A stretch of DNA of 64,000 nucleotides from an uncultured cyanobacterium (GTDB lineage: Bacteria; Cyanobacteriota; Cyanobacteriia; PCC-9006; JAAUQQ01), in contig OY970368.1 of NCBI GenBank assembly GCA_963718615.1, positions 3,347,973-3,411,972 on the forward strand, in the 5' to 3' direction. A program made the translations under genes and the position numbers. Under the pieces are notes generated by a model that was not told where the DNA came from, did no database searches, and was given only the letters and a program-made list of their open reading frames with translations. How positions within the stretch are numbered: position 1 is the stretch's first letter; every line of letters begins with the position of its first letter. Shown here piece by piece: positions 30,935 through 46,523 of this stretch.

Positions 30935-32002
30935 ATGGGCTCATCCAATCCGACGGCAGCGCTGGAAACCCTTCAGTCAGAACTCTCTACCCTTATTGCT
31001 CAATTACCGTCCTTAGAACATGGCAAGCTGATTAAGCGTGTTCTAGAAAGCCTCTTGGTGATGGCCCAGGAAGACCTAGAACGCCTGGATTGGAAAATTT
31101 TGCTGGGCTCTTTGCAAGACATGGAGCGAGCCTTCACGCTGTTTTCGCCCTATCGACATATTCGCAAAATTGCGGTGTTTGGTTCAGCGCGAACGCCAAA
31201 GACGGACCCGGATTATCCGATGGCGGTTGAGTTTTCTCGCCGGATGGCGGAGCAAGGCTTCATGATTATGACGGGTGCAGGGGGGGGGATCATGGAGGCA
31301 GCGAATGAAGGGGCGGGGCGATCGCAATCCTTTGGGCTCAATGTCCAACTCCCCTTCGAGCAAAGCGCCAATCCCTTTATCAAAGGGGATAATAAGCTTC
31401 TGCAATTTAAATACTTTTTCACCCGCAAACTCTTTTTTCTGCGGGAAACCGATGCAGTCGCGGCCTTCCCTGGTGGTTATGGCACCATGGATGAACTCTA
31501 TGAATGTTTAACCCTGGTGCAAACGGGAAAATTTGGACCAGCACCGCTCATTTTGGTTGATCGACCGGGTGGAGATTATTGGCAGGAGTGGGAGAAATTT
31601 AGTAAGGATCAGCTTCTTCTAAAAGGACTCATTAGTCCTGAAGATCCTTGCCTATATACGATTACGGATCAAGTCGAAGTTGCCTGTCGAGTTATCTCTG
31701 ATTTCTATCGTGTTTACCATTCTAGTCGCTATGTTGGACCCTTGTTTATCATGCGGCTCAAGGCTGAACTAACGGATGAAGATGTAGAGTTTCTGAATCA
31801 TTCATTCAAAGATATTTTAGTCACCGATCGGATTGAAAAAACTCAAGCCCTGCCGGAAGAGGCCGCCGATGAAACCGTTGGCATGCCGCGCCTTAAGTTT
31901 CACTATAATCAGCGAGATACGGGACGTCTTTATCAACTGATTGCAGAAGTGAATCGATTGGGTGTCAAGTCCCTAGGTGAAGCTCACCCAGAGCAAAAAT
32001 AA
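30935..32002 (+). CDS. LOG-family protein (lysine-decarboxylase-like fold, long form)
   Basis: 'IAVFGSART', 'TGAGGGIMEAANEGA' and 'PGGYGTMDELYE' motifs. Confidence 0.8.
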   Translation: MGSSNPTAALETLQSELSTLIAQLPSLEHGKLIKRVLESLLVMAQEDLERLDWKILLGSLQDMERAFTLFSPYRHIRKIAVFGSARTPKTDPDYPMAVEFSRRMAEQGFMIMTGAGGGIMEAANEGAGRSQSFGLNVQLPFEQSANPFIKGDNKLLQFKYFFTRKLFFLRETDAVAAFPGGYGTMDELYECLTLVQTGKFGPAPLILVDRPGGDYWQEWEKFSKDQLLLKGLISPEDPCLYTITDQVEVACRVISDFYRVYHSSRYVGPLFIMRLKAELTDEDVEFLNHSFKDILVTDRIEKTQALPEEAADETVGMPRLKFHYNQRDTGRLYQLIAEVNRLGVKSLGEAHPEQK

Positions 32003-32311
32003 TTTGATTATCGCATCCTAAGAAGAGTCAATGTTCCAATTTTATAGCATTGACTTTGTGGGCCTAATGATTGCTCTCGACCTTGACTCCAATACAGTTC
32101 TTGGCCCAGTAAATTAATATTGTCTAAAGTTATTCGTGATCATTTTACCAACAGCTTTCTTACGTATTTGAGACAGCTTTATCGATAAATTGGGAAAACT
32201 AGAAGCTAAGCACTACACGATTTAATTTTCTGTTTCTCGGAAAATCGAGGATCTTTATCAGGGTTGCATTTGCTGTACTCCCGTCAGGAAAGTCTACCAG
32301 GACTGTGTCTC

Positions 32312-34924
32312 ATGAGTTACGGCCATGTTTCCGATCTAGCATCTCCTAGGAGCCAGCCAGGTCGGGATGCTGCATCCAATTCTCACCCGACCGACCCGAT
32401 GTCTTCAGGTTGGTCTGAGTTTCAGCATCTGTTCCTAACGCTGAATGAAAGCGATGGCTTTTCTCAGCTTAAACTCGTCTTGGAGAGTATGGATGATGCC
32501 ATTGTTTTGCTTAATGCTCAGAGAGCACTCCTCTTTGTCAACTCAGCCGCTAATCATCTTTTAGGAGATGGGGTGCATAGCTTTGTGCAACAAGATTGGG
32601 CAATTAGGTTAAGCGAGCTCTATGGAGCCCAAAAGTCTGCCCCAATCTCTTTGTCTGCTCAATCTTTTCTAGAGTCTACAGATTCTTCCTCCCTTTCAGA
32701 GGCAAAACCTAGAGTCTTTAAAATTTATAGCACGGATGAGCCCGAGCAATGGATCACAGTTGTTGAACGTCCTCTCCATAATCCTCAACAGCAGTTGCTT
32801 GGCAGTTTAATTATTTGCCGTGATATCAGTGAACATAAGCGGGTTGAGGAAAAGCTGTTACATGATGCTTTCCATGACAAGCTAACGGGATTGCCCAATC
32901 GCAATCTACTACTCAAGCAGTTGGAACGGGCGATCGCCACTACTCAACAATCCTCTAAATATCAATTTTCTGTTTTATTTTTAGATCTTGATCGGTTTAA
33001 GGTCATTAATGATAGCCTTGGTCCCATAGTTGGAGACCAACTACTGATTGCAGTAGCACAACGACTGAAACGTTGCCTAAGGGTAGAAGATATAATTGTG
33101 CGCTTAGGCGGTGACGAATTTGCAATTTTGTTGAATGATATCAAAGATATCAACTATAGTCAGCAGGTTGCTGATCGAGTCAACCAAGAGCTAGTCTTAC
33201 CCTTTAATCTGAATGGACATGAAGTGTTCGCGGATGTCAGTATTGGCATTGCGACTGGTGCCCAGGGGTATGAAAAACCAGAAGAAATTTTGCGGGATGC
33301 AGACATTGCAATGCACCATGCTAAAGAACTGGGAAAATCCTGTTATCAGTTCTTTGATAAAGCGATGCATATCGATGCAGTCAAGCTGCTTCAGCTTGAA
33401 AACGATATTCGTCGAGCAGTTGATCGGAAGGAATTTCAAGTTCACTACCAACCGATCATCTCACTGCACAGCGAGGAAATTGCAGGATTTGAAGCGTTAG
33501 CTCGCTGGCGACATCCTCAACAAGGATTTATTCCTCCCTCAGAATTTATTCCCGTTGCAGAAGAAACAGGTTTAATCATTCCCCTAGGACTTTGGGTTTT
33601 ACAGGAAAGCTGTTGGCAGATGAAAGTCTGGCAACTTCAGTTTCCTGAGGCGCACCAATGGACAATCAGCGTCAACATCTCCGGTCGTCAGTTGATGAAG
33701 CCACACTTTGTGGAGCATGTAAAGCATATCTTAGCTGACACAAATCTCTCTTCTAAAAACCTAAAGCTGGAAATTACTGAGAGTGTTTTACTAAATAGTA
33801 ATCAAGAGGTTACTTATATCCTAAAACAGCTTCAATCAATTGGTATTCAGCTTGCAATGGATGACTTTGGCACTGGATATTCTTCGATGAGCTATCTCTT
33901 AGATTTTCCATTTAATACGCTTAAAATTGATCGATCATTTATTAAGAGCATGGAAGGGTCTAGGAAAAAACTAGGCATTGTTCGTTCCATTATTAACATG
34001 TCAAGCAATTTAGATATGAATGTCATTGCTGAGGGTGTTGAAACTATGGGACATCTGGCTCAGCTCAAAGTTTTAAAGTGTGGCTATGGTCAGGGACATT
34101 TCTTTGCTAAAGCATTAGACTCTCAATCTGCTGAAGGGTTTATTATTTCTGAGCTTGCAAAAGTTGGAAGTAATCGTTATTCCGATCTTGAGATGTCGGT
34201 TGAAGAACTGCGATCTCGAGAACAACTACTTCTACAAATCGAAAGCCTTCAACAGGAATTAAACGAAATTAAGCAAGAGAAAGTCGATCTTGAAATTTTA
34301 TTGGAAACAGCCACAGAACATGCGAGCATTGTCGAACTAGAATTAGAGCAAGAGATTTTCGACTATCAGAAAAACGAAGAGGCTCTTCAAAAAGCCAATC
34401 GTGAACTAGAAAATTTATCTAGCCTAGATAGCCTAACTCAGTTGGCAAATCGCCGTCGTTTTGATGAATATATCAGAGAACAATGGGATATCTTAGGTCA
34501 ACAAAACAAGCCACTCTCGCTTATTCTTTTGGATGTTGACTACTTTAAAAATTATAACGACCATTATGGACATCAAGCTGGAGATAACTGCCTCATTCAA
34601 GTTGCCCAAGTGATGATGCAATCTGTCAAAAGTTCTCAGGATTTAACGGCTCGATATGGTGGCGAAGAATTCGCAGTGATTATGCCTAATACAGGGGCAG
34701 GAAGTGCAATTAGAACTGCTGAGCAAATCCGCATCACATTAAAATCTCGCCAAATTTCTCATGCCGGATCTCTAGTTGGTGAACATGTTACAGTCAGTCT
34801 TGGTATTGTTAGTTTAGTACCAACCGCAACGGGCAAACCAAATGCACTGATTGACTTAGCTGATCGCGCACTCTATGAAGCTAAGTCTCAAGGGCGTGAT
34901 CGGTTTATCTTATTTTCAAGCTAA
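32312..34924 (+). CDS. PAS-GGDEF-EAL-GGDEF signalling protein (diguanylate cyclase/phosphodiesterase)
   Basis: First GGDEF 'RLGGDEFAIL', EAL domain 'FEALARWRHPQQGFIPPSEFIPVAEETGLI', coiled coil, second GGDEF 'YGGEEFAVIMP'. ATG at 32312; ORF track starts at TTG 32264. Confidence 0.85.
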   Translation: MSYGHVSDLASPRSQPGRDAASNSHPTDPMSSGWSEFQHLFLTLNESDGFSQLKLVLESMDDAIVLLNAQRALLFVNSAANHLLGDGVHSFVQQDWAIRLSELYGAQKSAPISLSAQSFLESTDSSSLSEAKPRVFKIYSTDEPEQWITVVERPLHNPQQQLLGSLIICRDISEHKRVEEKLLHDAFHDKLTGLPNRNLLLKQLERAIATTQQSSKYQFSVLFLDLDRFKVINDSLGPIVGDQLLIAVAQRLKRCLRVEDIIVRLGGDEFAILLNDIKDINYSQQVADRVNQELVLPFNLNGHEVFADVSIGIATGAQGYEKPEEILRDADIAMHHAKELGKSCYQFFDKAMHIDAVKLLQLENDIRRAVDRKEFQVHYQPIISLHSEEIAGFEALARWRHPQQGFIPPSEFIPVAEETGLIIPLGLWVLQESCWQMKVWQLQFPEAHQWTISVNISGRQLMKPHFVEHVKHILADTNLSSKNLKLEITESVLLNSNQEVTYILKQLQSIGIQLAMDDFGTGYSSMSYLLDFPFNTLKIDRSFIKSMEGSRKKLGIVRSIINMSSNLDMNVIAEGVETMGHLAQLKVLKCGYGQGHFFAKALDSQSAEGFIISELAKVGSNRYSDLEMSVEELRSREQLLLQIESLQQELNEIKQEKVDLEILLETATEHASIVELELEQEIFDYQKNEEALQKANRELENLSSLDSLTQLANRRRFDEYIREQWDILGQQNKPLSLILLDVDYFKNYNDHYGHQAGDNCLIQVAQVMMQSVKSSQDLTARYGGEEFAVIMPNTGAGSAIRTAEQIRITLKSRQISHAGSLVGEHVTVSLGIVSLVPTATGKPNALIDLADRALYEAKSQGRDRFILFSS

Positions 34925-35231
34925 ATTAGTAAAACTATCTTTTCAAAGAGATACCTTTTAATAACATTTTGATGGACTGTATGAGTGCAAAACTAAATCA
35001 TTAAAAATTGAGAAAGCTATTTACTTCTCTACAGACAATTATTAATCAATGCCTTTGGGTCTGATGAACGACATCTACTGGTGCGAATATATCGAGAATT
35101 TAAAAAGAAAAAACTAGATTTATAGGCTCACAAGGCATTGGCAAGGCATTAGCAATGTCTTACCTCCAAAAAGCATAGACTCGACAACCTCCCAAATATT
35201 CTAAACAGCCAATAAAGAGAAGAAAAAACTT

Positions 35232-35627
35232 TTATTGTATTTCTAGTTTCAGGCTTGGCATCAAACGTTGTAAATTCTTTAGAGATTTACCCTGCCAAGG
35301 AATCTCTTCGTTACCTAGCACAGTTAATTGAACTGTTTTACGCTTCCTAATGTTGATTACAAACTTAGATAATAAGCTAATTCCCAAGCTATTTAGGAAC
35401 TGGAGCGAGCGTAAGTCAATTATAATTAGAGACGACTCTTGGTCTGCCATGGCTTCTAACATAGAGATAATTTGTTGATAATCAGGCTCACTGCCTTGAA
35501 ATCTCATCGAGCCTTCCAGTCGGATAGTTGCTTGATTAGAATCGTAAAAGACACAATATTTTTCATGGGAAATTTTCATATGTAATACTTCTTTGAATGG
35601 AGATTGAGAACTAGGCATGATATTCAA
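35232..35627 (-). CDS. STAS-domain protein (anti-sigma-factor-antagonist / SpoIIAA-RsbV-like)
   Basis: 'IIDLRSLQFLNSLGISLL' resembles the SpoIIAA phospho-serine region (DLSxVxF[MI]DSSGLG); last gene of the minus-strand operon. Confidence 0.5.
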   Translation of the reverse strand: MNIMPSSQSPFKEVLHMKISHEKYCVFYDSNQATIRLEGSMRFQGSEPDYQQIISMLEAMADQESSLIIIDLRSLQFLNSLGISLLSKFVINIRKRKTVQLTVLGNEEIPWQGKSLKNLQRLMPSLKLEIQ

Positions 35628-35695
35628 AAAATGTGAAGCAGAAAGGATCGTTAACAGCTTTAAAGATGACCAAATCGAACAGTAGTCCTATAAGT

Positions 35696-36295
35696 CTAAA
35701 TAGCTAGTTGTACCATAGTCGTAACCGTTATACTATCCTGACTAGTCGACTCATATTCAAACTTCCAGCCTAACTTTGCCGAATAGTCATTTAGCATAGT
35801 AAGTAGACCCAGCCCAGAATCAATATGATTTTCAGCATTTCTTTCGAGCTGACGAATATAAAGCTCTTCTGGATCTGAATTGACAACCTCTTCAATATAG
35901 CGTTGGAAACTTAAAACTGAATGCGGATTGATACTGTTTTTGATAAAGAAGATAATTTTGTCGACATCAAAGCAGAGACGAATTTGCGTATAGTCTACTT
36001 GGTTTTTATAACTAAACTTCATCGCATTTTCCAATAGCTCGTTGGCAATGAAGCTTACTGCATCTTTAATTTCAGCTTGTTTTTTCTGAGCCGCAAGATC
36101 TTCGTCCTTAATTGGTAAACAAGTTACAAGATAATCAGCGAGGAAATCAGCAGATATACCATTATTGCGCCATCTTTTCCTAGGAGGAGCACTACTAGGT
36201 GTGAAATGCAAAACTAGCTGCTCTCTGCAAGGAGGTAAGGCATCAATAAAATCACCAAACGTTGTAGCTGTTGGTATTATATTTCTGATAGTCAT
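35696..36295 (-). CDS. GHKL-type ATPase, anti-sigma-factor-like serine kinase (RsbW/SiaB-like)
   Basis: N-box-like 'ANELLENAMKFS' and G-box-like 'DSGLGL'; about 200 aa with no HisKA domain; adjacent to the STAS gene. Confidence 0.5.
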   Translation of the reverse strand: MTIRNIIPTATTFGDFIDALPPCREQLVLHFTPSSAPPRKRWRNNGISADFLADYLVTCLPIKDEDLAAQKKQAEIKDAVSFIANELLENAMKFSYKNQVDYTQIRLCFDVDKIIFFIKNSINPHSVLSFQRYIEEVVNSDPEELYIRQLERNAENHIDSGLGLLTMLNDYSAKLGWKFEYESTSQDSITVTTMVQLAI

Positions 36296-36323
36296 TGTTT
36301 TTCCTCGGAGTAGTTAATTAGTT

Positions 36324-38126
36324 TCAGTTTTTACGTTTAATAACTAAAAGTGTAATGTCATCGTAAATTTTACTATTGTCGATATGATCGTATAAGTCCT
36401 TAATTACAGTATCCTTAATTTCTAAAGCTGATTGATGACGGCATTGATTGATGCGATCGCACATTCGTTCCAGACCATACAACTTTCCCTCTTTACTCTC
36501 CGCTTCTGTAACACCATCAGTATAAAGAACAATAACGTCTCCTGGATGAATATAAACCTCGGTTTGATCAATAAAATCAAGAATCTCCTCTTCAAGTCCA
36601 ATGGGAAAACCCAAATCAACTGTACTAATTTGATTAATTTTTCCAGATTGAGTAAAGATTAATACTTCCTCATGCTGTCCACTTATCTTTAAACGCCCCT
36701 CATTATAGTCAACTAGCATCAACGTCAGATTTTTATCAGTTTCCATCCTCTTAATGTTGTGAAATATGGTTCGATTAACAACATCAAGAATTCGATTTTG
36801 TTCCGTTTCTCCATTCTCAATCAATGTTCGAATTGTGGTCTGGACCATTAACATTAACACGCCACTTTCTAGGCCGTGTCCCGTTACGTCTCCTATACCA
36901 ATCCGAATAGAGTCTCCATAGCAAATCACGTCATAATAATCTCCTCCAACTTCTTCCGCAGGCGTCATAAATCCTGCAATTTCCAGATCCTCAATTTTGG
37001 CAAGCTCTTTTTCTTTTGGAAGGATCATTTGCTGTAACTTTTGTGTGATTTCTAATTCAGCATTTAGTCGTGTATTTTCTTGTTCTAGCTTTTGATTTAA
37101 TGTTGTAATTTCATGATTAGCTTGTGCAAGTTGGTCGAGATATGAAGTTTCTTGATCTCGTAATCTTTTCTTCTCAAGACAAGCATCTACACGTGCTTTG
37201 AGTAAAACTGGATTAAAGGGCTTTGCTAGATAGTCTTCTGCCCCCATTTCAATGCATTTAACGACACTATCAATTTCGTCTAAAGATGAAATCATAATTA
37301 CAGGTAAATATCGCCAATCGCTGTTTCTTAGCCATTTTAATACCTGATATCCATTAATCTCTGGCATAATAACATCGAGCAACACTAAATCAAAGCTGCC
37401 TGACGTAATTGCTTGAATTGCTTCTAATCCACTCGAAACTTCTGTTTTCTGATGCCCTTGTCGCTGAACATATCGACTTAGTAAATCTCGATTGACAGCG
37501 TTGTTATCAACAATCAAAATATGAGATTTATAACTTAGATCAGACTTGTGTTCAGTATCTTTATTCTTAGAATGACAGTTTATTTCTTGTCTGTAGTCGG
37601 ATAGAGAAGGCGAGAAGTCTGAAATATTTTCTTGTTGCTTTTGAGTCGAAAACTTTAATGGCATTGTAACTGAGCTTTGTTGGATCAAGTCTTGAAAGAG
37701 ACAAGCTGCAACTTCTATTTTCTCAACATCAGCCCTGAAGGATTTAGGTGCTAAAGGTTTAAGATTTTGGCACTTTTCCAGCAATGGCTGAGCCAAAGGC
37801 TGCAACCGTGCTCGAACCCAATGTTTTGCACAATTCGATATCTCAAAAGCTATATTTTCGTCAATGACAAACTCATCTTGCAATGATTCTATCGTTAAAC
37901 CGCGACCAATATAGGATACTAAATGTTTGTTCTTTAGTGAGATCTCATGTAACTGTGACGATAGGATTTGGATATCTTGCAGATCAACTGATTCTTCCAA
38001 CTCCTCTATTAATAGCTCACTGTAGCCTTGAATTGCATTTAAAGGCGTATAAAGCTCATGTCTAAAATGAGCAATCCATGAGCTATAGTCTATTAGTTCA
38101 GCATCTAATGCTTGAGACACATTCAT
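36324..38126 (-). CDS. HisKA-like / receiver / PP2C (SpoIIE-type) phosphatase fusion protein
   Basis: N-terminal H-box 'HELYTPLNAIQGYSELL' with no ATPase domain; REC domain ('ILIVDNN...DLVLLDVIMPEINGY...MISS...KP'); coiled coil; C-terminal PP2C ('GGDYYD...GIGDVTGHGLESG...LYTDGVTEA'). Confidence 0.8.
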   Translation of the reverse strand: MNVSQALDAELIDYSSWIAHFRHELYTPLNAIQGYSELLIEELEESVDLQDIQILSSQLHEISLKNKHLVSYIGRGLTIESLQDEFVIDENIAFEISNCAKHWVRARLQPLAQPLLEKCQNLKPLAPKSFRADVEKIEVAACLFQDLIQQSSVTMPLKFSTQKQQENISDFSPSLSDYRQEINCHSKNKDTEHKSDLSYKSHILIVDNNAVNRDLLSRYVQRQGHQKTEVSSGLEAIQAITSGSFDLVLLDVIMPEINGYQVLKWLRNSDWRYLPVIMISSLDEIDSVVKCIEMGAEDYLAKPFNPVLLKARVDACLEKKRLRDQETSYLDQLAQANHEITTLNQKLEQENTRLNAELEITQKLQQMILPKEKELAKIEDLEIAGFMTPAEEVGGDYYDVICYGDSIRIGIGDVTGHGLESGVLMLMVQTTIRTLIENGETEQNRILDVVNRTIFHNIKRMETDKNLTLMLVDYNEGRLKISGQHEEVLIFTQSGKINQISTVDLGFPIGLEEEILDFIDQTEVYIHPGDVIVLYTDGVTEAESKEGKLYGLERMCDRINQCRHQSALEIKDTVIKDLYDHIDNSKIYDDITLLVIKRKN

Positions 38127-38128
38127 AG

Positions 38129-38515
38129 CTACTCGTTTGAATAGGGCTGCGTTTTTTTGAGCAATGCTTCGATTTTACTAATCAGGCGTTTTAGATCTAC
38201 TGGCTTAGTATCATAGTCATCACAACCGGCTTCTAGTGCCTTTTCGCGATCGCCTGACATTGCATGAGCAGTTAATGCAATAATCGGAATAGATTGAGTT
38301 TGAGGATTAAATTTAATATAACGCGTTGCTTCCCATCCATCTAAAATAGGTAAGCTCATATCCATTAAGACTAAGTCAGGTTTTTCTGCAATACTCATTG
38401 TCACACCTTGGGCCCCATCGGAAGCAATTGCAACCTCGTAGCCACGTCGACTTAATCGTCGAGACAGCATATCTTGATTCATTTCGTTGTCTTCAACCAG
38501 AAGTAGCTTTACCAT
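38129..38515 (-). CDS. Single-domain response regulator (CheY-like receiver)
   Basis: 'LLLVEDNEMNQDM...DLVLMDMSLPILDGWEA...ALTAHAM...KP'. Start placed at the ATG giving 'MVKLLLVED'; ORF track extends to 38560. Confidence 0.8.
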   Translation of the reverse strand: MVKLLLVEDNEMNQDMLSRRLSRRGYEVAIASDGAQGVTMSIAEKPDLVLMDMSLPILDGWEATRYIKFNPQTQSIPIIALTAHAMSGDREKALEAGCDDYDTKPVDLKRLISKIEALLKKTQPYSNE

Positions 38516-38576
38516 AAATTTAAAGGTCAAAATTCTTAAAAAGATTAGGGAAATAGGCAAAAGTTTAAATCTCCAA

Positions 38577-41054
38577 CTAAGATATATATGGTATTAGTAA
38601 TTGAGAGTTTTCTTTTAACCTTTCCTGTCTTTCTATTGCTTTTAATAATAGATCTTTTAATGTTGAAAGGAGAATCTTGCTTTCGCATAAATCTTTAATT
38701 AAAATTTCCTCAACTTGTCCTTGCAAACTTTGACGTTCAATGAAAGTTAGATCTTTAGCAGTCATTAAGATAACTGGGATTGCATCATAGAGACTATCCT
38801 GCCGTAAAGCCTGTAAAAACTCAAAACCATTCATTTTAGGCATCAAAAGATCTAATATAATTAAATTAGGATAGAAACCTGAATTTAATAGATGAAGACC
38901 TTCTATACCATTTTCAGCCGTTTTGACTATCCAACCTGCTGGTTCAAGTTGATGCGTTAATAAGTCTCGAATGATAGGATCGTCATCAATGAGCAGGATT
39001 TCTCGATTTTCTCCCTCTTGACAACAGCGTTGTAAAACCTCATATAGTCTTTGACGATCTATTGGCTTTGTTAAATATTCTGAGGCACCGAGCGCATATC
39101 CTCGACTCTGATCGTTTACAAAACTCATCATAATAACAGGAACCTCAGCTAGTTCTGAGTCGCTCTTAATCTGACTTAAAACAGACCAACCATCAATATC
39201 AGGCAAAATTACATCCAAGGTAATTGCCTGAGGACGGATTTCCCGAGCTAATCGTAGGCCCTCACTTCCTGTCGTAACAGTTTGTACAGCAAATCCCTGT
39301 TTAACAAGAAAACGACGCATAATGTCGTGAACGGCTAGATCATCATCTATGACTAATATCGTTTTTTGTAAGTTAGGCTTTGAAAAGTCTTCGTTTTCCT
39401 GGACAACACTTAAATTATTTTTATGGATATCAACCTTTCTAGGTAGTTGAATTATAAATGTGGAACCCTCTCTCAATTGACTGTCTACTTTAATGCTTCC
39501 TCCCATCATTAAACAGAACTCCTTAGTAATTGCTAATCCAAGTCCTGTTCCTCCATACTTACGGGTAGTAGAAGCATCTGCTTGAGAAAATGCTTGAAAT
39601 AACTTATTTTGCTGCTCAATCGTCATTCCAATACCCGTATCTCGAACTTTAAATAGAATCAAGTTTTGATCACTATCTTGATCCTCGACGATTTCTAAAT
39701 AAATTTTTCCACAACTTGTAAACTTACTTGCATTGCTCAGTAAGTTTAGTAAGCATTGGCGAATTTTAGTTAGATCAGCATACATTTCGCCAATATCGAC
39801 AGCACATTCTATAATCAACTGATTTTGCTGTTTATCTATTAATGGATGTACTGTTGTAACGACGTCCTCTATTAAATCTTGAATTGAAAAAGTTTCTAAG
39901 TAAACTTCCATTCGGCCTGCTTCTATTTTAGATAAATCTAAAATATCGTTGATCAGACCTAGCAAATGCTTTCCCGCACTATGAATTTTAACTAAATCTG
40001 GGACAAAATCTTCTTCGCCTAAATCAAGCGCCTCTTCATGCAGCATCTCACTGTATCCAATAATTGCATTAAGTGGTGTTCGTAGCTCATGACTCATATT
40101 GGCAAGAAACATACTCTTCGCCTGATTTGCCTCTTCTGCAGCGGCTTTTGCCTCACGAGCTTCTTCAATGCTATCCGCTAACTCTGTAGTTCGCTGAATG
40201 ACCTTCTGTTCTAGAGTTCGATTATAGTCTGCTAAATCTTCTTTTGCCTTTTCCAAGTCAATTTGGCTACTTTCTAGAGCTTCTGTTTTATTTTGAATCA
40301 TGCTAGCCATTTGATCAAACGCACGGGAAATTGTTGCGAGTTCATCAGACCCCTTGAGCTGAGCACGCACACTTAAGATTCCCTCTGATAATAAGTTACT
40401 GGCTGAGACTAACCTGGCAGCACGTCGAGTTAAGACCTCTTCAAAAAAGAACCAAACTGCTATACAAAGAAGGGTAAGAACAAAGGTGGATTCTAGCGAT
40501 CGCTTTAAAGCATCTCCATAGGTCTGTTGGCGTAGGCGCTTTAAGTCATAATCTAGGAACAAAATACCAATTTTTGAGGGTAATATTTCGCCTGGATCTG
40601 ACTTGAAAGCAACTGGATATAGGGCTTGAATAGATTGATGATCTGGACTGATTAAAACTTCACCTGCCTGCATTTGACGAATTTTTTCTATCTTTACATG
40701 GAGTTGATCTGCGGGAGTTTCTTCAATTGAAAGACCCTTGAGAAGCTGAGATGTCGTTAGAAGTACCTTATTTTGATCATCGAAGAGAATCGCAGACTTT
40801 AATTCAACTTCGTCTTCTAACTGACTGATCATAAGAGCAGCACCATCCCCGCTGACGCGACGATACAAGTATTCCAAGATACCAGAGGTATGGTCGCCCA
40901 TAAATCTGACGTAGTTGCTTACATTTTGCTCATTGCGACGATGAGCGAGGTATACTTCACGCCGAAATGAGTAAAAGCTAGAAAAACTACCTAAGATTAG
41001 TAAAATTAACGGAATTGAAAGGCGTAGGGGTGGTGGAAACCGCTTTGACATCAT
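38577..41054 (-). CDS. Hybrid sensor histidine kinase (periplasmic sensor region, TM, HisKA, HATPase_c, two C-terminal REC domains)
   Basis: H-box '[19 protein letters not shown]', G-boxes 'RDTGIGM' and 'GGTGLGLAI', then two receiver domains; N-terminal 180-aa region lies between two hydrophobic segments. Confidence 0.85.
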
Positions 41055-41092
41055 CAGCTCCTAAGAAAGGACAAACAACAATCGTTGTTTGA

Positions 41093-42121
41093 CTAAGGAC
41101 GAATACTTTTGATGACGCTGTCGTCCATCAGTAGAGTTGGATCAACTGTCTTTTTCAATAAACCGTTCTGTTTCATAATTGTTACAAGATGTTTTGAGCT
41201 TTGTACTAAAGTAGATTCTTGACTTCCTAATAGAGTTTTATTTTCTTCTAGACTCGGGACTCTTACTCCTTTTAAGGATGCTAAGAAGTCTGTAGACGAC
41301 ATATTGTAATCAGCAGCCAAGAGTTCAGCAGATTTTTGAGGATTTGCTTCTAGATATTCTTGAGCCTTAAACCATCCTTCCAGTAGGTGTTTTAGATTAC
41401 GATGTTGATTTTTGAGCGTCTCTGTATGCACACCCAGAACATCGACAATCTCTCCAGGAATCTGGCTACTATCAAATAGGTGATTTGCACCTTCCGTAAC
41501 CAGTCGAGAGCTCATCGGTTCATAGGTCACTAATCCATCAACCTTGTCTTTTTTAAAGGCTTGACCATGTTCGAAGGTTGCCAAAGGGACGATTTGCAAA
41601 TCCTTAGTTGAAAGATTTACGGTTTCTAGAGCTCGGGTTAGAAGAAACGCACCTAATCCTGATGATTCAACGCCGACTCGCTTCCCTGATAGTTCCTTTA
41701 AACTGGAAATGTCAGGCTTGCCTAAAATCGCATCGGCTCCATGGGAGCTGTCAATAACTAAGACAAAGCGCATATCCTGCATGACCTCAGCGATTGGCAT
41801 TGCATCGTTCATCGTCAATGCAACGGCGTCAAGTTCACCATTTCGAAAGGCTTTGAACATTGCACTATTGGAAGAATAGGTTGTTAGGTTGGCAACATTA
41901 GAATCGTAATACTTTAAGTCCTTTGCAAGATAAAAGCTTGCATATCCTGGCCAAACAACAACACCTATCCTGATAGGATTTTCTCCAATTTGAATACAGG
42001 ACGGCAAAGAAACGGTACAGAACAAAGAAACGAGAAGAAGGGAAATCCATTGAACTTTCAATTGAGAAGCAAACAACTTGATACAAGACAAAGTTTTTGC
42101 TTTCAAGAGACTTAGATCCAT
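41093..42121 (-). CDS. Periplasmic substrate-binding protein (NMT1/SsuA/TauA-like fold)
   Basis: Hydrophobic N-terminus, then 'IRIGVVVWPGYASFYLAKD' and overall class-II SBP layout; no ABC permease or ATPase nearby. Confidence 0.65.
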   Translation of the reverse strand: MDLSLLKAKTLSCIKLFASQLKVQWISLLLVSLFCTVSLPSCIQIGENPIRIGVVVWPGYASFYLAKDLKYYDSNVANLTTYSSNSAMFKAFRNGELDAVALTMNDAMPIAEVMQDMRFVLVIDSSHGADAILGKPDISSLKELSGKRVGVESSGLGAFLLTRALETVNLSTKDLQIVPLATFEHGQAFKKDKVDGLVTYEPMSSRLVTEGANHLFDSSQIPGEIVDVLGVHTETLKNQHRNLKHLLEGWFKAQEYLEANPQKSAELLAADYNMSSTDFLASLKGVRVPSLEENKTLLGSQESTLVQSSKHLVTIMKQNGLLKKTVDPTLLMDDSVIKSIRP

Positions 42122-42174
42122 GACTCAATACCTCAAAAATAAAGAGAAAAACTATATTGGTTTATTAATGAAAC

Positions 42175-43227
42175 CTATTGGTTAGACGCTAGTGCTTCAA
42201 TAAGATGATTGTCAATCAATTCTTCTAGTGGATAAATCTTTTGAAGATGGTGACTTTGTGCCAATTCTTCTTGAAGCTTATGTACACATTTTTCTAACCA
42301 TGATTCTTTGAGAGAGAGCATCCTTGCATTTTCCTCTAAAGTATATTCATGAATTCCTTGCATTGCTTTGAAAAGTTCTTTACTCATTAGCTTATTGCGA
42401 GCAAAAATTATTTTAGCCGCATCTTGAGGCTTGTTTCTGTAGTATTCTTGTGCTTTAAACCAACCGTTTATGAGCTCTTGAAGAGCTAATTTATAGCTTT
42501 CTATTGAATCATCTCGAACCAACAAAACATCAACGATCTCGTTCAGCATTTGATGACTACTAAAGACTTCTTGAGCTCCTTCTGCTATTAGCTGAGAAAG
42601 AATTGGTTCATAGGTGATAATCGTAGAAACTGATGACTGACGGAATGAATTAATTTGATCATTCAGATCAAGGGGAACAACCTGAATATCCTCTATCGTC
42701 AGTCCTGCCAGATCGAGTAGACGTGTGAGCATTAAGGTTCCCCGGCTCGAAGCTTCTATAGCAACAGTTTGTTTTTTTAATTCATAGAGAGATTTTATAG
42801 GATTTCGAGTAATAACAGCATCTGCCCCACAGGAACTACTCAAGATCAAGACAATTTTGAGATGCGGATCTGTATCTGAAAGAAGCAAAGCATCTCCCAA
42901 TGAAAGCAGTAATCCGTCAAGTTGCTGATTGCGAAAGGCACGATTTTTATCTTCAACGGTAGGATAATTAATCAGCCTAATATCTTGTTGATCGTAATAG
43001 CCTAAACGTTGAGCAAGATAAACGTTGTTATAAGAAAGGCCAGTAGTTGTTCCAATTCTGAGAGGAGCTGCATTCGAGGTGCAACTCACAAAGGCTAGAC
43101 TAATAGCGCTAATGAGTCCAACCAAAAGCGTCTTGAAGCGATGTTTTTTGGGAACCGGCGATCGCCAAGCGGAATATATTCTATTGATCAATCTAATTGA
43201 TCTAAGTGGTAGAGAACGGCGCATCAC
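42175..43227 (-). CDS. Periplasmic substrate-binding protein, paralogue of 41093..42121
   Basis: Same layout, with 'LLEGWFKAQEYLEANPQ' in one and 'LINGWFKAQEYYRNKPQ' in the other; first gene of the operon. Confidence 0.65.
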   Translation of the reverse strand: MMRRSLPLRSIRLINRIYSAWRSPVPKKHRFKTLLVGLISAISLAFVSCTSNAAPLRIGTTTGLSYNNVYLAQRLGYYDQQDIRLINYPTVEDKNRAFRNQQLDGLLLSLGDALLLSDTDPHLKIVLILSSSCGADAVITRNPIKSLYELKKQTVAIEASSRGTLMLTRLLDLAGLTIEDIQVVPLDLNDQINSFRQSSVSTIITYEPILSQLIAEGAQEVFSSHQMLNEIVDVLLVRDDSIESYKLALQELINGWFKAQEYYRNKPQDAAKIIFARNKLMSKELFKAMQGIHEYTLEENARMLSLKESWLEKCVHKLQEELAQSHHLQKIYPLEELIDNHLIEALASNQ

Positions 43228-43676
43228 CTTTACTTACCCAACAAACTGCTGGAAATTGACTCATTATCCTTTTGACCCATTAATCGCCTTTAACTCCGTC
43301 TCTGTTTTATAGAAAAGCGGTTTATCTACGGCTTTGGATAGGATGTCCTTCAGTATGCCCAGCGAGATTTTAAAACCGACAAAATTTGATTAGTCCGTAA
43401 AACCTAGGAAGCACTTGAGTCATGATTCTCTAGGAAACCGTGTTTTTACTCAATTCTCCTTAGTCAGGGTTATCTATGCTAGATATGTAGATCTTGTCTA
43501 TGGGCTTCATCTCTATTACTTAGAAGCTGTCTGCTTAAATGTTATCCGTCTTGTCGTTTTCCATCTTGATTGCTATCTAGCGTTGATCACTCAGTTGATT
43601 CATCAAGTTGGTACACTCAATTAGTACGTCGCCATTCTCATCCATCATTCTTGTACGTTGTAGAGTTTTGAACACA

Positions 43677-44900
43677 ATGAAATCCTCTGTGCATAGGCTG
43701 AATGACATTACCCAGCATGAAATTGAGGCACTCAAACATGAATATAATATGTCTGATGCTCATACACATCAATCTCAGTCTCCAAGCCAGAGGAAAATTG
43801 TAGAGCGTCTACCACAGCTTTGGTTTGACGCAGAGAATAAGCGACAACATGAGTTAGAGCAATGCTTCTTAGAAAATTTCTTTCGGGTACAGGGACGACC
43901 TTGGGCGCTTAAAAATAAGCTTCCTATGCTGGTCTATTCAGCTTCAATTGCAATGGCAATTACTGCAAACTACCTGCTTAAGAAAAAGCTGACTGTAAGT
44001 TTAATTCATCCATGTTTTGACAACTTGGTCGATCTGATGAAAAACATGCAGGTTCCACTTCAAGCACTTGAAGAGGAATGGCTGTATGATCCCGAAATGA
44101 TCTATGAGAATCTCGAAAAGAATGTCAAGAGTGACGCTATCTTCTTGGTTGATCCTAACAATCCATCTGGATTTACGCTATATCAGCAAGGAATAGTCGG
44201 TTGGCAAGAGCTAATCCGGTTTGCGAAAGAAAACAAAAAGTTGCTGATTTTTGACTTTTGCTTTGCAGCTTTCATGCTGAATAACAAAAATCTACAGCTC
44301 TTCGACATTTATGAAATGTTGGAGACTTCTGGTGTAAGCTATATTGCGATGGAGGATACGGGTAAGACTTGGCCGCTACAAGATGCTAAGGTTGCTATGC
44401 TTAAAAGCAGTGCTGATCTTTACGCGGATATCTACAATCTTTATACTGCTTATCTTCTGAACGTATCACCTTTTATACTGAATATCGTAACTCAGTATAT
44501 TCTTGATTCTGAAAAAGATAAATTTGCATCAGTGCACGGTTTGCTGAGCCGCAATCGTGCGATCGCTGAAGGAATTCTCAAAGATTCTATTTTAGAACCA
44601 ATGACTCCTTTGGTGAATGTTAGTGTGATGTGGTGTCGAATCAACAGTGAACAGATTCAATCTAGTCAGCTCAAGACTTACTTGACAGAATTTGACATTC
44701 ACATTTTACCTGGAACTTTCTTTTTCTGGAATTCACCCCAGCGCGGCGAACGCTTTATTCGCTTGGCTTTAGCGCGTAATACTGAAACTTTCGAACCTGC
44801 CGTACGAGCCCTTCGAGATGCTGTTGACCAATACGAAGTTTTCCTCTCCGCTCAGAAAACTCAGCGGGATTTATGCTCCCCTAGTAACGCCCTTTTATAA
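43677..44900 (+). CDS. PLP-dependent aminotransferase-fold protein
   Basis: 'LVDPNNPSGF' and a candidate PLP-lysine in 'MEDTGKTW'. Start placed at the ATG giving 'MKSSVHRL'; ORF track begins at TTG 43608. Confidence 0.6.
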   Translation: MKSSVHRLNDITQHEIEALKHEYNMSDAHTHQSQSPSQRKIVERLPQLWFDAENKRQHELEQCFLENFFRVQGRPWALKNKLPMLVYSASIAMAITANYLLKKKLTVSLIHPCFDNLVDLMKNMQVPLQALEEEWLYDPEMIYENLEKNVKSDAIFLVDPNNPSGFTLYQQGIVGWQELIRFAKENKKLLIFDFCFAAFMLNNKNLQLFDIYEMLETSGVSYIAMEDTGKTWPLQDAKVAMLKSSADLYADIYNLYTAYLLNVSPFILNIVTQYILDSEKDKFASVHGLLSRNRAIAEGILKDSILEPMTPLVNVSVMWCRINSEQIQSSQLKTYLTEFDIHILPGTFFFWNSPQRGERFIRLALARNTETFEPAVRALRDAVDQYEVFLSAQKTQRDLCSPSNALL

Positions 44901-45672
44901 GGGACAGTTTGATCAAGACTCACTCTATCGCCTGATGGATACGATTGAGCCCTTTGCAGAGGGATTTGTACCCTGTTTGAGTTCTGGCGAAGGTCAGTTT
45001 CTTTCCCTCTCAACTTGGCAGAATGTTATCCAGGCAACGCGTCAATATACTCAGAAGGTAGTTATTGCGGGGATCAAACGTGAAACTCTACAAGAGACAA
45101 TAGCGTTAGGTAAACTGGCACAACAGTTGGGTTGTGATGCCATTATTGTGCCGGTACCTGTCTCAGATGATAGGGTTACCGTTGGTTACTTCAATCAAAT
45201 TACCGCTGCGATCGCCCTACCCATTGTTATCTATAATACGGAAAGCCATTCTATTCAATCACTAGATGGTTTAAGGCAACTGGAGAGCTTACCTCAAATC
45301 ATTGCTATTAAGGATTCTTCCATGAATGAAGAATTTTTTAAGCTCCTTTGTAATTTGAGAACTCAAGCGCAGCTCCGTCTTTCGGTTCTACAGGGATTTG
45401 AACATCTTTTGCAAGTCCCCCCTGGTTGTGATGGCTATCTCATTGCCTTGGCAAATCTTGAACCAGAGCTTTGCCATCGAATGTTGCTTGAAAATTCTGA
45501 TGTGATCAATAGTGAAATTCTAGATTGCTTTTGGCGTTATAACCTGGGTGCTGATTGGTTTGTGAGTATGAAGGCAATTTTGATGGCTCGCCAAGTCATT
45601 CGCTCTGCGGAACAAGTTAATCTAATGGTTCAACCCGATCTTAAATCGGTTCCTAATTTGGCGATCGCATAG
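44818..45672 (+). CDS. DapA/NAL-family (class I aldolase, dihydrodipicolinate-synthase-like) protein
   Basis: 'GIYAPLVTPF' N-terminal motif and 'IIAIKDSS' candidate Schiff-base lysine. Overlaps the preceding gene by 83 bp; true start may be a non-ATG codon further in. Confidence 0.65.
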   Translation: MLLTNTKFSSPLRKLSGIYAPLVTPFYKGQFDQDSLYRLMDTIEPFAEGFVPCLSSGEGQFLSLSTWQNVIQATRQYTQKVVIAGIKRETLQETIALGKLAQQLGCDAIIVPVPVSDDRVTVGYFNQITAAIALPIVIYNTESHSIQSLDGLRQLESLPQIIAIKDSSMNEEFFKLLCNLRTQAQLRLSVLQGFEHLLQVPPGCDGYLIALANLEPELCHRMLLENSDVINSEILDCFWRYNLGADWFVSMKAILMARQVIRSAEQVNLMVQPDLKSVPNLAIA

Positions 45673-45984
45673 CCATCATCAAGCTTAACTAAGCATGCTT
45701 CCATCATTCCAATGATCGAGTGGATAAAAACAAGTTAACTGATTGCCTGCGATTTTTTTTATGAGTTGCAGGCTTTTTCGATATTTAATTTGATCAATAA
45801 CCCAATGCTGTGTAATTTACTTAAGCTTGAATGTTTTCAAATAAATTTGAAATTTTAGGCTACTTAGTCTGATATTGCTTTTGTTTTATTCATAAAAAGT
45901 TCGGATTGTATCTATGAACTAGGAAGATGGAAATAGAGATGGCTATCACGGTTATTTCTTGCTTATCTTCATTGCTTTATTTCT

Positions 45985-46485
45985 ATGTTGGGCTGGATCT
46001 TCTTGGCTTTTGCAGTTTGTTTGGATGTTCTGGGCACATTTGCTGCAAAATATGCGAATGGGTTTACAACACTGATTCCATCACTCATTACTATTGGGGC
46101 CTATTGTTTATCATTTACAGCGTTGACCTTTTCGATCAAAACACTCGATGTCAGCGTGGCTTATCCGGTTTGGACTGGCTCTGCAATCTTTTTAGTGGCT
46201 GTTTTAGGGGCTGTATTCTTCCACGAAACGGTCAATTTCTTTAAAGTCTTTTCAACACTTTTGGTCGTCTTTGGCATCGTTGGCTTAGTGGTTAGTAGCC
46301 AGCCCGATGCAGCGGCTTGTCCGCCGGAGGTAGAACAAACTCAGCACCTACTCCAGAGCAGTAATCGCCCAAGGCTGTCCATGTCTCCTGTCTTTCATCG
46401 ATTAGGCACACCTGTACTCTATGCAACTGTTAAGGGATACTCTGCCAACGTCATTCGTTTAAAGCCAGAGTTTTCTGAAAACTAA
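45985..46485 (+). CDS. SMR/DMT-like small membrane transporter with about 60-aa C-terminal extension
   Basis: Four TM helices in the first ~105 aa; hydrophilic tail follows. ATG start. Confidence 0.45.
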   Translation: MLGWIFLAFAVCLDVLGTFAAKYANGFTTLIPSLITIGAYCLSFTALTFSIKTLDVSVAYPVWTGSAIFLVAVLGAVFFHETVNFFKVFSTLLVVFGIVGLVVSSQPDAAACPPEVEQTQHLLQSSNRPRLSMSPVFHRLGTPVLYATVKGYSANVIRLKPEFSEN

Positions 46486-46523
46486 GGATGGCAACGCAAT
46501 CTCGTGCTTAGGTTGCCATCCTT
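46484..46523. terminator. Hairpin with perfect 12-bp stem (aaggatggcaac / gttgccatcctt) and 16-nt loop, between convergent genes
   Basis: Starts at the stop codon of the 45985..46485 ORF. Confidence 0.5.

Follow-up and report, generated by a model that had tools for sequence, protein, structure and literature searches.

Two-component control of a PP2C partner switch is already known from RsbY, HsbR and Pseudomonas aeruginosa RssB, and histidine phosphotransferases resembling the dimerization and histidine phosphotransfer (DHp) domain of kinases are known from Spo0B and ChpT, which are stand-alone homodimers that each carry a degenerate, catalytic-like alpha/beta domain. For hybrid histidine kinases, a transfer of this kind through a His-containing domain is required on the way to a terminal receiver. 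In Cyanobacteria, hybrid kinases are most abundant, making up more than 10% of two-component proteins, and many of them are without HPt domains, HPt being present in only 75% of the surveyed cyanobacterial species (PMC4558063). Here we analysed a 64,000-nucleotide stretch of DNA from an uncultured cyanobacterium (assembly GCA_963718615.1, contig OY970368.1, positions 3,347,973 to 3,411,972 of the forward strand), hereafter the window, with coordinates counted from its first letter and all features on the minus strand unless stated otherwise. The analysis centred on the gene at 36324..38126, whose 600-residue product (hereafter the target) is composed of a DHp domain with its His, a degenerate DHp, a linker, a receiver, a long helix and a PP2C phosphatase domain. 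We propose, with moderate confidence, that this protein is the terminal member of a multi-step His-Asp phosphorelay and that it carries its own histidine phosphotransfer domain.

The first helical hairpin of the target (hairpin 1, residues 3-76, 37899..38120) is of the HisKA type and contains an H-box, HELYTPLNAIQGYSELL, at residues 23-39 (38010..38060), with His23 at 38058..38060 and Tyr26 at 38049..38051. In a Pfam scan of the full-length protein, HisKA (PF00512) was matched partially (residues 17-55) at 26.6 bits against a gathering score of 26.9, and when the first 155 residues were scanned in isolation the score rose to 31.0 bits, above that cutoff. A profile of hairpin 1 built from 21 homologs matched DHp domains of known structure along both helices (HK853, 4jas, E 5e-9), with RetS and another kinase DHp also among the best matches (E about 1e-8). 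Judged by these scores, the match of the N-terminus to HisKA/DHp lies far above chance. Conservation was assessed in at least 120 full-length homologs (47-65% identity to the target, same three Pfam domains), of which the named ones are all cyanobacterial and include Pleurocapsales, Waterburya, Stanieria and Chondrocystis. Of the 120, 119 have His23 and one has a Tyr in its place; the acidic residue at His+1 (E/D24) is found in all 120, as are R22 (R-1), T27 (T+4), P28 (P+5), N30 (N+7), G34 (G+11), Y35 (Y+12), E37 (E+14) and E41. Hairpin 1 thus looks like a genuine DHp that is constrained in the manner of a working phospho-acceptor, which bears out the H-box that the initial annotation had recognised.

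The H-box of the target reads HELYTP and agrees with the HisKA pattern H-E/D-x-x-T/N-P, the family norm being HELRTP. The initial annotation had singled out the Tyr that stands for the canonical Arg; Tyr26 is indeed there, but it has no family-wide meaning, position 26 (His+3) being Arg in 103 and Tyr in 13 of the 120 homologs. Tyr26 is confined to a subclade whose sensors are two NMT1-type binding proteins and a HAMP hybrid kinase, and as a family-defining trait it was rejected on that distribution. In the homolog P0038, a Tyr replaces the phospho-acceptor His itself (RYELCTP), as in DivL, and the Arg at His+3 is a Cys. The absence of a catalytic domain, also claimed in the initial annotation, held: HATPase_c was matched neither by the full-length protein at E<=1 nor by the isolated N-terminal domain at E<=10. 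The profile check that had been suggested there, against HisKA and HPt, gave HisKA above its cutoff and no match to HPt (PF01627) at E<=10. At the same threshold, the N-terminal domain matched neither the Spo0B-type family SPOB_a nor the ChpT-type family HPTransfase, and in Pfam the first 155 residues alone gave nothing besides HisKA. Pfam and NCBIfam, when searched, held no model dedicated to the tandem-DHp domain. Because the target has no HATPase_c and no upstream sensor, the DHp helix already beginning at residue 3, it cannot autophosphorylate.

A second DHp repeat, overlooked by the initial annotation, follows at residues 92-150 (hairpin 2, 37677..37853) and is degenerate, with RARLQPL and no His where hairpin 1 has RHELYTP. 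Comparison of the two family profiles aligned the hairpins over 49 columns with 93% probability (E 2.8e-7), pairing RHELYTPLNAIQGYSELL with RARLQPLAQPLLEKCQNL and also the second helices with each other. The last helix of the N-terminal domain, FRADVEKIEVAACLFQDLI, is still similar to helix 2 of the DHp in the neighbouring kinase. By these alignments, hairpin 2 is a decayed tandem duplicate of the DHp that has lost its His. We also considered residues 90-200 as a vestigial catalytic domain, a reading that was rejected because this stretch consists of helices only and shares homology with the DHp. In an AlphaFold2 model of the full-length target (pLDDT 82, pTM 0.55), the N-terminal domain is formed of four helices (residues 3-44 or 3-45, 50-76, 93-120 and 128-149) without any alpha/beta domain, and hairpins 1 and 2 pack together into one single-chain four-helix bundle. 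According to this model, the DHp has probably been duplicated into a single-chain bundle with His23 as its single phospho-acceptor. The best match of the hairpin-2 profile among PDB sequences was not significant (E 0.34) and fell on residues 153-172 of Escherichia coli RssB, in its linker and helix-1 region, where LQELQPPVQQVISHC lines up with the family's LELQPPAQKVIESCQ (target residues 105-125, window about 37752..37814); E. coli RssB, curiously, also combines a receiver with a pseudo-PP2C domain.

The bundle is separated from the receiver by a low-complexity linker (residues 151-200, 37527..37676), whose length varies in the alignment and whose pLDDT is below 50, with a disordered stretch of about 45-50 residues in the model. 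The receiver (residues 201-305, 37212..37526; phospho-acceptor Asp251 at 37374..37376) was matched by Response_reg (PF00072) over residues 203-313 at 93.7 bits in the full-length scan. D207, D251, S280 and K302 each occur in all 120 homologs, and position 208 is Asn in the target and Asp in 117 of 120, so far as residues tell a full set for phospho-acceptance. A helix of 63 residues (306-368, 37023..37211), presumed to be a crossing or coiled-coil linker, connects the receiver to the phosphatase and includes a strongly conserved stretch in the family alignment, KPFNP..LKARI.ACLEKKRLRDQE. Of the receiver and coiled coil that the initial annotation had placed ahead of the PP2C domain, the receiver is therefore supported by its Pfam score, and the "coiled coil" amounts to this single predicted helix.

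The PP2C/SpoIIE domain (residues 381-598, 36333..36986) was matched by SpoIIE (PF07228) over residues 405-598 at 130.8 bits in the same scan, and its motifs GGDYYD, GDVTGHG, YTDG and DDIT show no variation across 50 homologs. Because these metal-binding Asp motifs are unchanged across the family, the phosphatase is predicted to be active. Compared with known structures, the target model gave P. aeruginosa RssB (receiver, crossing helix, PP2C) as its top match (E 5e-21); the PP2C domain alone superposed on SiaA-PP2C (6k4e) with a TM-score of 0.84, normalised on the target, and its fold also matches the phosphatase domains of RssB, RsbU and SpoIIE. The RssB equivalog model NF045505 covered residues 201-598 only, with 98.8 bits against a cutoff of 700, and since this is far under the equivalog cutoff the target is not an RssB ortholog; it is the same kind of receiver-PP2C protein. 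In such phosphatases, crossing helical linkers and phosphatase dimerization are the route by which N-terminal sensors, including receivers, exert control, and sensor-linker units have been argued to be swappable among phosphatases, kinases and cyclases (PMC12143880). A profile scan of the genome with the full-length target alignment returned mostly PP2C paralogs that matched residues 332-599 only.

We then asked how far the N-terminal domain extends beyond this family. An exhaustive search with its profile gave 66 representative clusters at E<=1e-30, and architectures were checked with Pfam on ten representatives and with local hidden Markov models on all 149 listed. The common unit consists of a DHp with its His, a second DHp-like repeat and a receiver, and the DHp pair is followed by no catalytic domain. 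Among about 95 representatives of at least 380 residues, this unit precedes an adenylate/guanylate cyclase (31), a complete kinase core (19) or a PP2C domain (8), while about 21 have PAS or no recognised output after it. The proteins come from Cyanobacteria (including a cyanobacterial metagenome-assembled genome) and from one deltaproteobacterial metagenome-assembled genome, and carry the public names "response regulator", "adenylate cyclase" and "signal transduction histidine kinase". The initial annotation had treated the architecture as a peculiarity of one PP2C protein; it is instead one instance of what, by its domain order, is a portable and widespread module of DHp(His), degenerate DHp and receiver. 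Since the module recurs before differing outputs, its role should concern the receiver and not the PP2C domain.

Within the module, the two H-boxes lie about 73 residues apart and the second one varies. Its His is still present in 23 tandem pairs, about 20 pairs have L, A, Y, M, F, V, R or Q in its place and frequently retain E..T-P, and in the target's own family the repeat has decayed past motif recognition. This variation reads as a decay series following duplication. In P0127, P0148, P0144, P0126 and others, the His-less second repeat retains R-x-E-L-x-T-P-L and G-Y-x-E (RVELRNP, RLELRTP, RYELGTP and RADLRTP are examples of its motifs), residues that are lost in the target's family. Their retention suggests a surface on the second face of the bundle for receiver docking or for a His-independent phosphatase activity. 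In the cyclase-type relatives P0121 and P0123 and in L088, four to six successive DHp-like repeats precede the receiver, and in the multi-repeat cyclase relatives His-bearing and His-less copies alternate.

In the window, the target gene is preceded by a stand-alone receiver gene (38129..38515, 128 residues from the ATG at 38515; Response_reg 89.1 bits, phospho-acceptor Asp at 38360..38362), the stop codon of which lies 2 nucleotides ahead of the target ATG. Upstream of it, a hybrid histidine kinase (38577..41054) shows the order HAMP, HisKA, HATPase_c, receiver, receiver in Pfam, without HPt, with His322 at 40089..40091, Asp614 at 39213..39215 and Asp735 at 38850..38852. The acceptor residues are intact in all four receiver domains of the cluster, and the Pfam scan gave an HPt domain in none of its proteins. 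Ahead of the HAMP domain, residues 1-207 of the kinase contain no sensor domain recognised by Pfam. The kinase gene is preceded by a pair of genes for NMT1-like solute-binding proteins (Pfam NMT1_2/NMT1), at 42175..43227 and 41093..42121, a pair that is also found upstream in the closest relatives, L082 and L083. Two paralogous NMT1-type proteins ahead of a sensor-less kinase imply sensing mediated by binding proteins, and the pair is probably the input of the kinase in the Tyr subclade.

This arrangement was compared across nine independent loci in which the module is unfused (five of the PP2C type, two of the kinase-core type and two of the cyclase type), one of them from the deltaproteobacterial metagenome-assembled genome. 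All nine have a gene for a single receiver (121-134 residues) immediately ahead of the module gene, eight have a hybrid kinase immediately ahead of that receiver gene (the exception being L088), and an HPt domain is listed in none of the nine. The sensors vary (NMT1 binding proteins with HAMP, dCache, Tll0287-like, PAS). Hybrid kinase, single receiver and module thus form a cassette that is conserved across the output types. At least three representatives are fusions in which the single receiver leads the module, giving receiver, DHp(H), DHp(L), receiver. The leading receiver of one of them, P0144, is 59% identical to the stand-alone receiver of the window over 121 residues (E 1e-52), and at the P0144 locus a hybrid kinase lies directly upstream and a separate receiver gene is absent, which is what fusion of two interacting partners predicts. 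A helix-1 signature, DN..N(R/Q)D(L/M)LSR.L...G(Y/H), is shared by the single receiver and the module receiver and is not found in the kinase-attached receivers. The FATGUY motif has been described as a mark of relay-intermediate receivers (PMC9981736); as a classifier it was unhelpful for the single receiver, which has ALTAHAM instead.

Downstream of the target lie the candidate partners of its phosphatase. The gene at 35696..36295 encodes a protein of the slr1658 family (DUF6272), a putative GHKL-type Ser/Thr kinase like SiaB and RsbW, which scored 250.1 bits with NF052618 (cutoff 200) and has an invariant N-box (NELLENAMK) and G-box (SGLGLLTM), both GHKL motifs. Next to it, 35232..35579 encodes a STAS-like, SiaC-like protein of the slr1659 superfamily and presumed PP2C substrate (NF047705, 141.9 bits, cutoff 100), with an invariant Ser (35388..35390) in FLNS(L/S)GI, where anti-sigma antagonists carry their phospho-Ser. 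NF047703, another of the three NCBIfam models that cover the pair, gave 229.1 bits (cutoff 100), and the two genes are neighbours in all five PP2C-type loci. Matches to the Sia proteins themselves are weak: the slr1658-type protein reached 21.8 bits with SiaB (E 1e-4, cutoff 85), and the slr1659-type protein 13.1 bits with SiaC (E 0.078, cutoff 24.5) and 18.9 bits with STAS in Pfam, below cutoff. Searched against the PDB, neither sequence gave a significant match. A relationship of the pair to SiaB and SiaC is accordingly suggested by weak profile matches together with motifs. The "STAS protein" that the initial annotation had named as substrate does belong to a kinase/STAS-like pair, identified by NF052618 and NF047705 above their cutoffs, but it is of the SiaC/slr1659 type and resembles STAS only weakly.

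Domain identities, residue conservation, the duplication within the N-terminal domain, the cassette and the fused genes are all observed, and they can be ordered into a relay. In this scheme, the upstream hybrid kinase would sense its input through the two solute-binding proteins and start the flow of phosphate, which would pass to a receiver Asp, most likely that of the stand-alone receiver, then to His23 of the tandem DHp and finally from His23 to Asp251 in the receiver of the same protein. The two receivers of the kinase itself would serve as intermediates or as sinks. As the cassette contains no HPt, the tandem DHp would fill the HPt role. Phosphorylated Asp251 would then order or dimerize the long helix, pairing it with that of a second chain by analogy with P. 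aeruginosa RssB, and so switch on the PP2C domain, as in proteins of the RsbU and P. aeruginosa RssB type. The active phosphatase would remove phosphate from the slr1659-type protein at its conserved Ser, the GHKL kinase of the slr1658 type would put it back and, by the logic of SiaABCD, the unphosphorylated form would act on a target. We infer every phosphoryl transfer, including that through His23, as well as the substrate of the PP2C domain; the output half, which draws on the PP2C domain, its likeness to RssB and SiaA, and the motifs and Ser of the slr1658/slr1659 pair, is well founded. The idea of a relay node, put forward in the initial annotation, gains comparative support from the conserved cassette, the lack of HPt and the receiver-module fusion, and its scope should grow from a single unusual phosphatase to a relay module of general use.

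Several points weigh against a transfer through His23. Helix 1 of the kinase DHp is near-identical to HELYTPLNAIQGYSELL of hairpin 1, so that the kinase might phosphorylate Asp251 directly and a transfer domain would be unnecessary. The first-repeat His is missing in P0038 and in about 10% of the wider representatives. The bundle was modelled from one chain only, a setup that favours intramolecular packing, and the N-terminal domain may be a domain-swapped dimer instead; fold searches with it returned generic four-helix bundles only. No division of roles between the two kinase receivers and the stand-alone receiver can be made out. ATP-dependent autophosphorylation reportedly needs the acidic residue at His+1 (Willett and Kirby, 2012), the invariance of which would fit a relay no better than trans-phosphorylation by a catalytic domain. 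Thr27, the HisKA phosphatase residue, is equally invariant and would be just as compatible with a phosphatase role. These last residues lead to a rather unlikely alternative, in which the DHp, devoid of a kinase, serves as an intrinsic phosphatase or as a sink for phosphate and works through the HisKA E/DxxT/N motif. It would act on Asp251 or on the stand-alone receiver, setting the lifetime of the signal or draining it by reverse transfer, and His23 would not be an obligatory forward intermediate. Thr27 and Glu/Asp24 are present in 120 of 120 homologs, and the second repeats of other lineages keep E/D..T/N-P without a His (RVELRNP, RLELRTP, RADLRTP), a pattern to be expected of a docking site or of a phosphatase that works without the His. 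Domain A of EnvZ by itself is also said to show phosphatase activity (Zhu et al., 2000). RedE, for its part, dephosphorylates RedF without needing its His (PMC2755868). Yet a phosphatase needs no His, and the first-repeat His is nearly invariant; the second repeat of the target's PP2C family is without ExxT; the crossing from HPt-less hybrid kinases to the terminal receiver would be left unexplained, if the kinase receivers are intermediates; and the fused order receiver, DHp, receiver is one that a forward relay predicts, though it is compatible with a phosphatase.

The near-identical H-boxes bear equally on a split kinase, in which the catalytic domain of the neighbouring hybrid kinase would phosphorylate His23 from ATP in trans, with transfer to Asp251 afterwards; the module would then offer that kinase a second, detachable DHp as substrate, comparable to Rhodobacter sphaeroides CheA3/CheA4. 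Hairpin 1 and the kinase DHp belong to one HisKA subtype, the invariant His+1 acid is tied to ATP-dependent His phosphorylation, and the hybrid kinase adjoins in eight of nine loci. We nevertheless consider this very improbable, because it leaves the always-adjacent and sometimes fused single receiver unexplained, because L088 has no adjacent kinase, and because a foreign catalytic domain would have to find a geometry in which it reaches His23 in a single-chain bundle. Both a phosphatase and a split kinase place chemistry at or next to His23 and are compatible with a relay. A bundle without any phosphoryl chemistry fits poorly and is improbable: the tandem DHp would then be a docking or regulatory element, either a kinase tether through DHp contacts like those of RetS and GacS, or a lock that holds its own receiver in the off state, or an oligomerization device for the PP2C domain like the N-terminal bundle of RsbU. 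RetS and another kinase DHp do rank among the best sequence matches, certain members are without the His, and RsbU does steer its PP2C domain by an N-terminal helical bundle and linker (PMC12143880). Against this, R-1, H, E+1, T+4, P+5 and N+7 are much better kept than the hydrophobic core or the decaying hairpin 2, and a disordered linker of about 50 residues leaves the bundle badly placed to drive PP2C dimerization mechanically. On balance, we retain the forward relay through His23 as the working interpretation.

Further features of the locus were recorded. The mechanical open reading frames 38129..38560 and 35232..35627 start at upstream TTG codons; alignment with orthologs and fused forms placed the true starts at ATG 38515 for the receiver (128 residues) and ATG 35579 for the slr1659-like protein (115 residues), whose orthologs begin at M17 of the mechanical frame. 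On the plus strand, 32264..34924 encodes an 886-residue PAS-GGDEF-EAL-GGDEF protein, convergent with the last gene of the operon; as a conserved SiaD-like output it was rejected, because four related loci do not have it there. A block of low GC, about 15 kb long (31500..46500; 36-43% GC against 50-58% on either side), spans this gene, the entire operon and divergent aminotransferase and DHDPS genes. The gene order, including a flanking peptidase M17 gene, is common to L082, where the same genes have 47-51% against 55-57% GC. The 64-kb window contains no tRNA gene, and the block could be a low-GC allele replacement or local compositional drift. In Synechocystis, disruption of slr1658 hampers recovery from iron limitation and raises pgr5 expression about a thousand-fold (PMC7555055, PMC6525291), and the signalling chain upstream of slr1658 has been described as unknown (PMC6525291); Slr1657, adjacent to slr1658/slr1659 there, is a GGDEF protein (PMC10124867), an arrangement reminiscent of SiaABCD.

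In the literature searched, we found no description of a catalytic-domain-free tandem HisKA, predicted to be a single chain, ahead of a terminal receiver, nor of the cassette that this domain forms together with a single receiver and a hybrid kinase without HPt, or of its portability between outputs. A kinase-less, duplicated DHp fused to a terminal regulator would supply the missing HPt-like step. Pfam labels the domain as HisKA only, which leads to annotations such as "response regulator", "adenylate cyclase" or "histidine kinase" and hides the relay. Portable over PP2C, cyclase and kinase outputs, the module offers a defined unit for studying phosphorelay wiring and, going by the model, could be a natural case of a homodimeric bundle turned into a single chain, while the locus connects a solute-binding-protein input to the slr1658/slr1659 switch. 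More tentatively, and with less confidence than we place in the relay itself, the tandem DHp might represent a third structural class of bacterial histidine phosphotransfer domain, single-chain and monomeric, beside HPt and the Spo0B/ChpT dimers. If so, it would define an unnamed, widespread cassette made of an HPt-less hybrid kinase, a single-domain receiver and a protein with tandem DHp, receiver and exchangeable output, and would show how many HPt-less hybrid kinases, especially cyanobacterial ones, reach their terminal regulators. The decay of the second repeat, from His to L/M/V/Y/A with ExxTP and on to the unrecognisable, would then record the passage from a symmetric dimer to an asymmetric single-chain module.

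How the target compares with described systems depends on which half is considered. On the output side, P. aeruginosa RssB, Bacillus cereus RsbY and HsbR share with it the order receiver, helical linker, PP2C and the conversion of a His-Asp signal into dephosphorylation of a STAS-type partner, but none of them has an N-terminal DHp, and HsbR is fed by the classical HPt protein HptB (HptB-HsbR-HsbA). SiaABCD and the target locus both combine a PP2C protein, a GHKL kinase of the SiaB/slr1658 type and a small STAS-like phosphoprotein of the SiaC/slr1659 type. SiaA is a membrane HAMP-PP2C protein that is not known to have a receiver or DHp. The target locus also departs from SiaABCD in that the SiaB and SiaC models score under their cutoffs and in that the GGDEF-EAL gene is convergent and not conserved in relatives. 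On the input side, the target is not a sensor histidine kinase transmitter, because no HATPase_c follows its HisKA. One census paper does treat a second kinase-like His domain as a relay element (PMC4558063). RedE of the Myxococcus RedCDEF system is likewise kinase-like without autophosphorylation, its His taking phosphate from the RedD receiver and the protein acting on the RedF receiver (PMC2755868); it differs from the target in being a separate protein with a conserved HATPase_c and mainly a phosphatase. With HPt domains (PF01627; the ArcB C-terminus, Ypd1, HptB), the target domain would share a monomeric four-helix bundle with one exposed His, placed between hybrid-kinase and terminal receivers; HPt differs in its HxxKG His context and has no sequence relationship, whereas the target His sits in a HisKA H-box of a domain derived from DHp duplication. 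For the relay itself, the parallels are Spo0F/Spo0B/Spo0A and CckA-ChpT-CtrA, where phosphate travels from an intermediate to a terminal receiver by way of a His-bearing, DHp-type four-helix bundle that has no kinase activity. Spo0B and ChpT belong to families of their own, whereas the N-terminal domain of the target matches only HisKA in Pfam, has no catalytic remnant, would by prediction unite a HisKA repeat and its decayed copy in a single chain, and is fused to the terminal regulator. The order Spo0F, Spo0B, Spo0A is mirrored by the single receiver, the His domain and the receiver-output protein, the last two being fused in the target.

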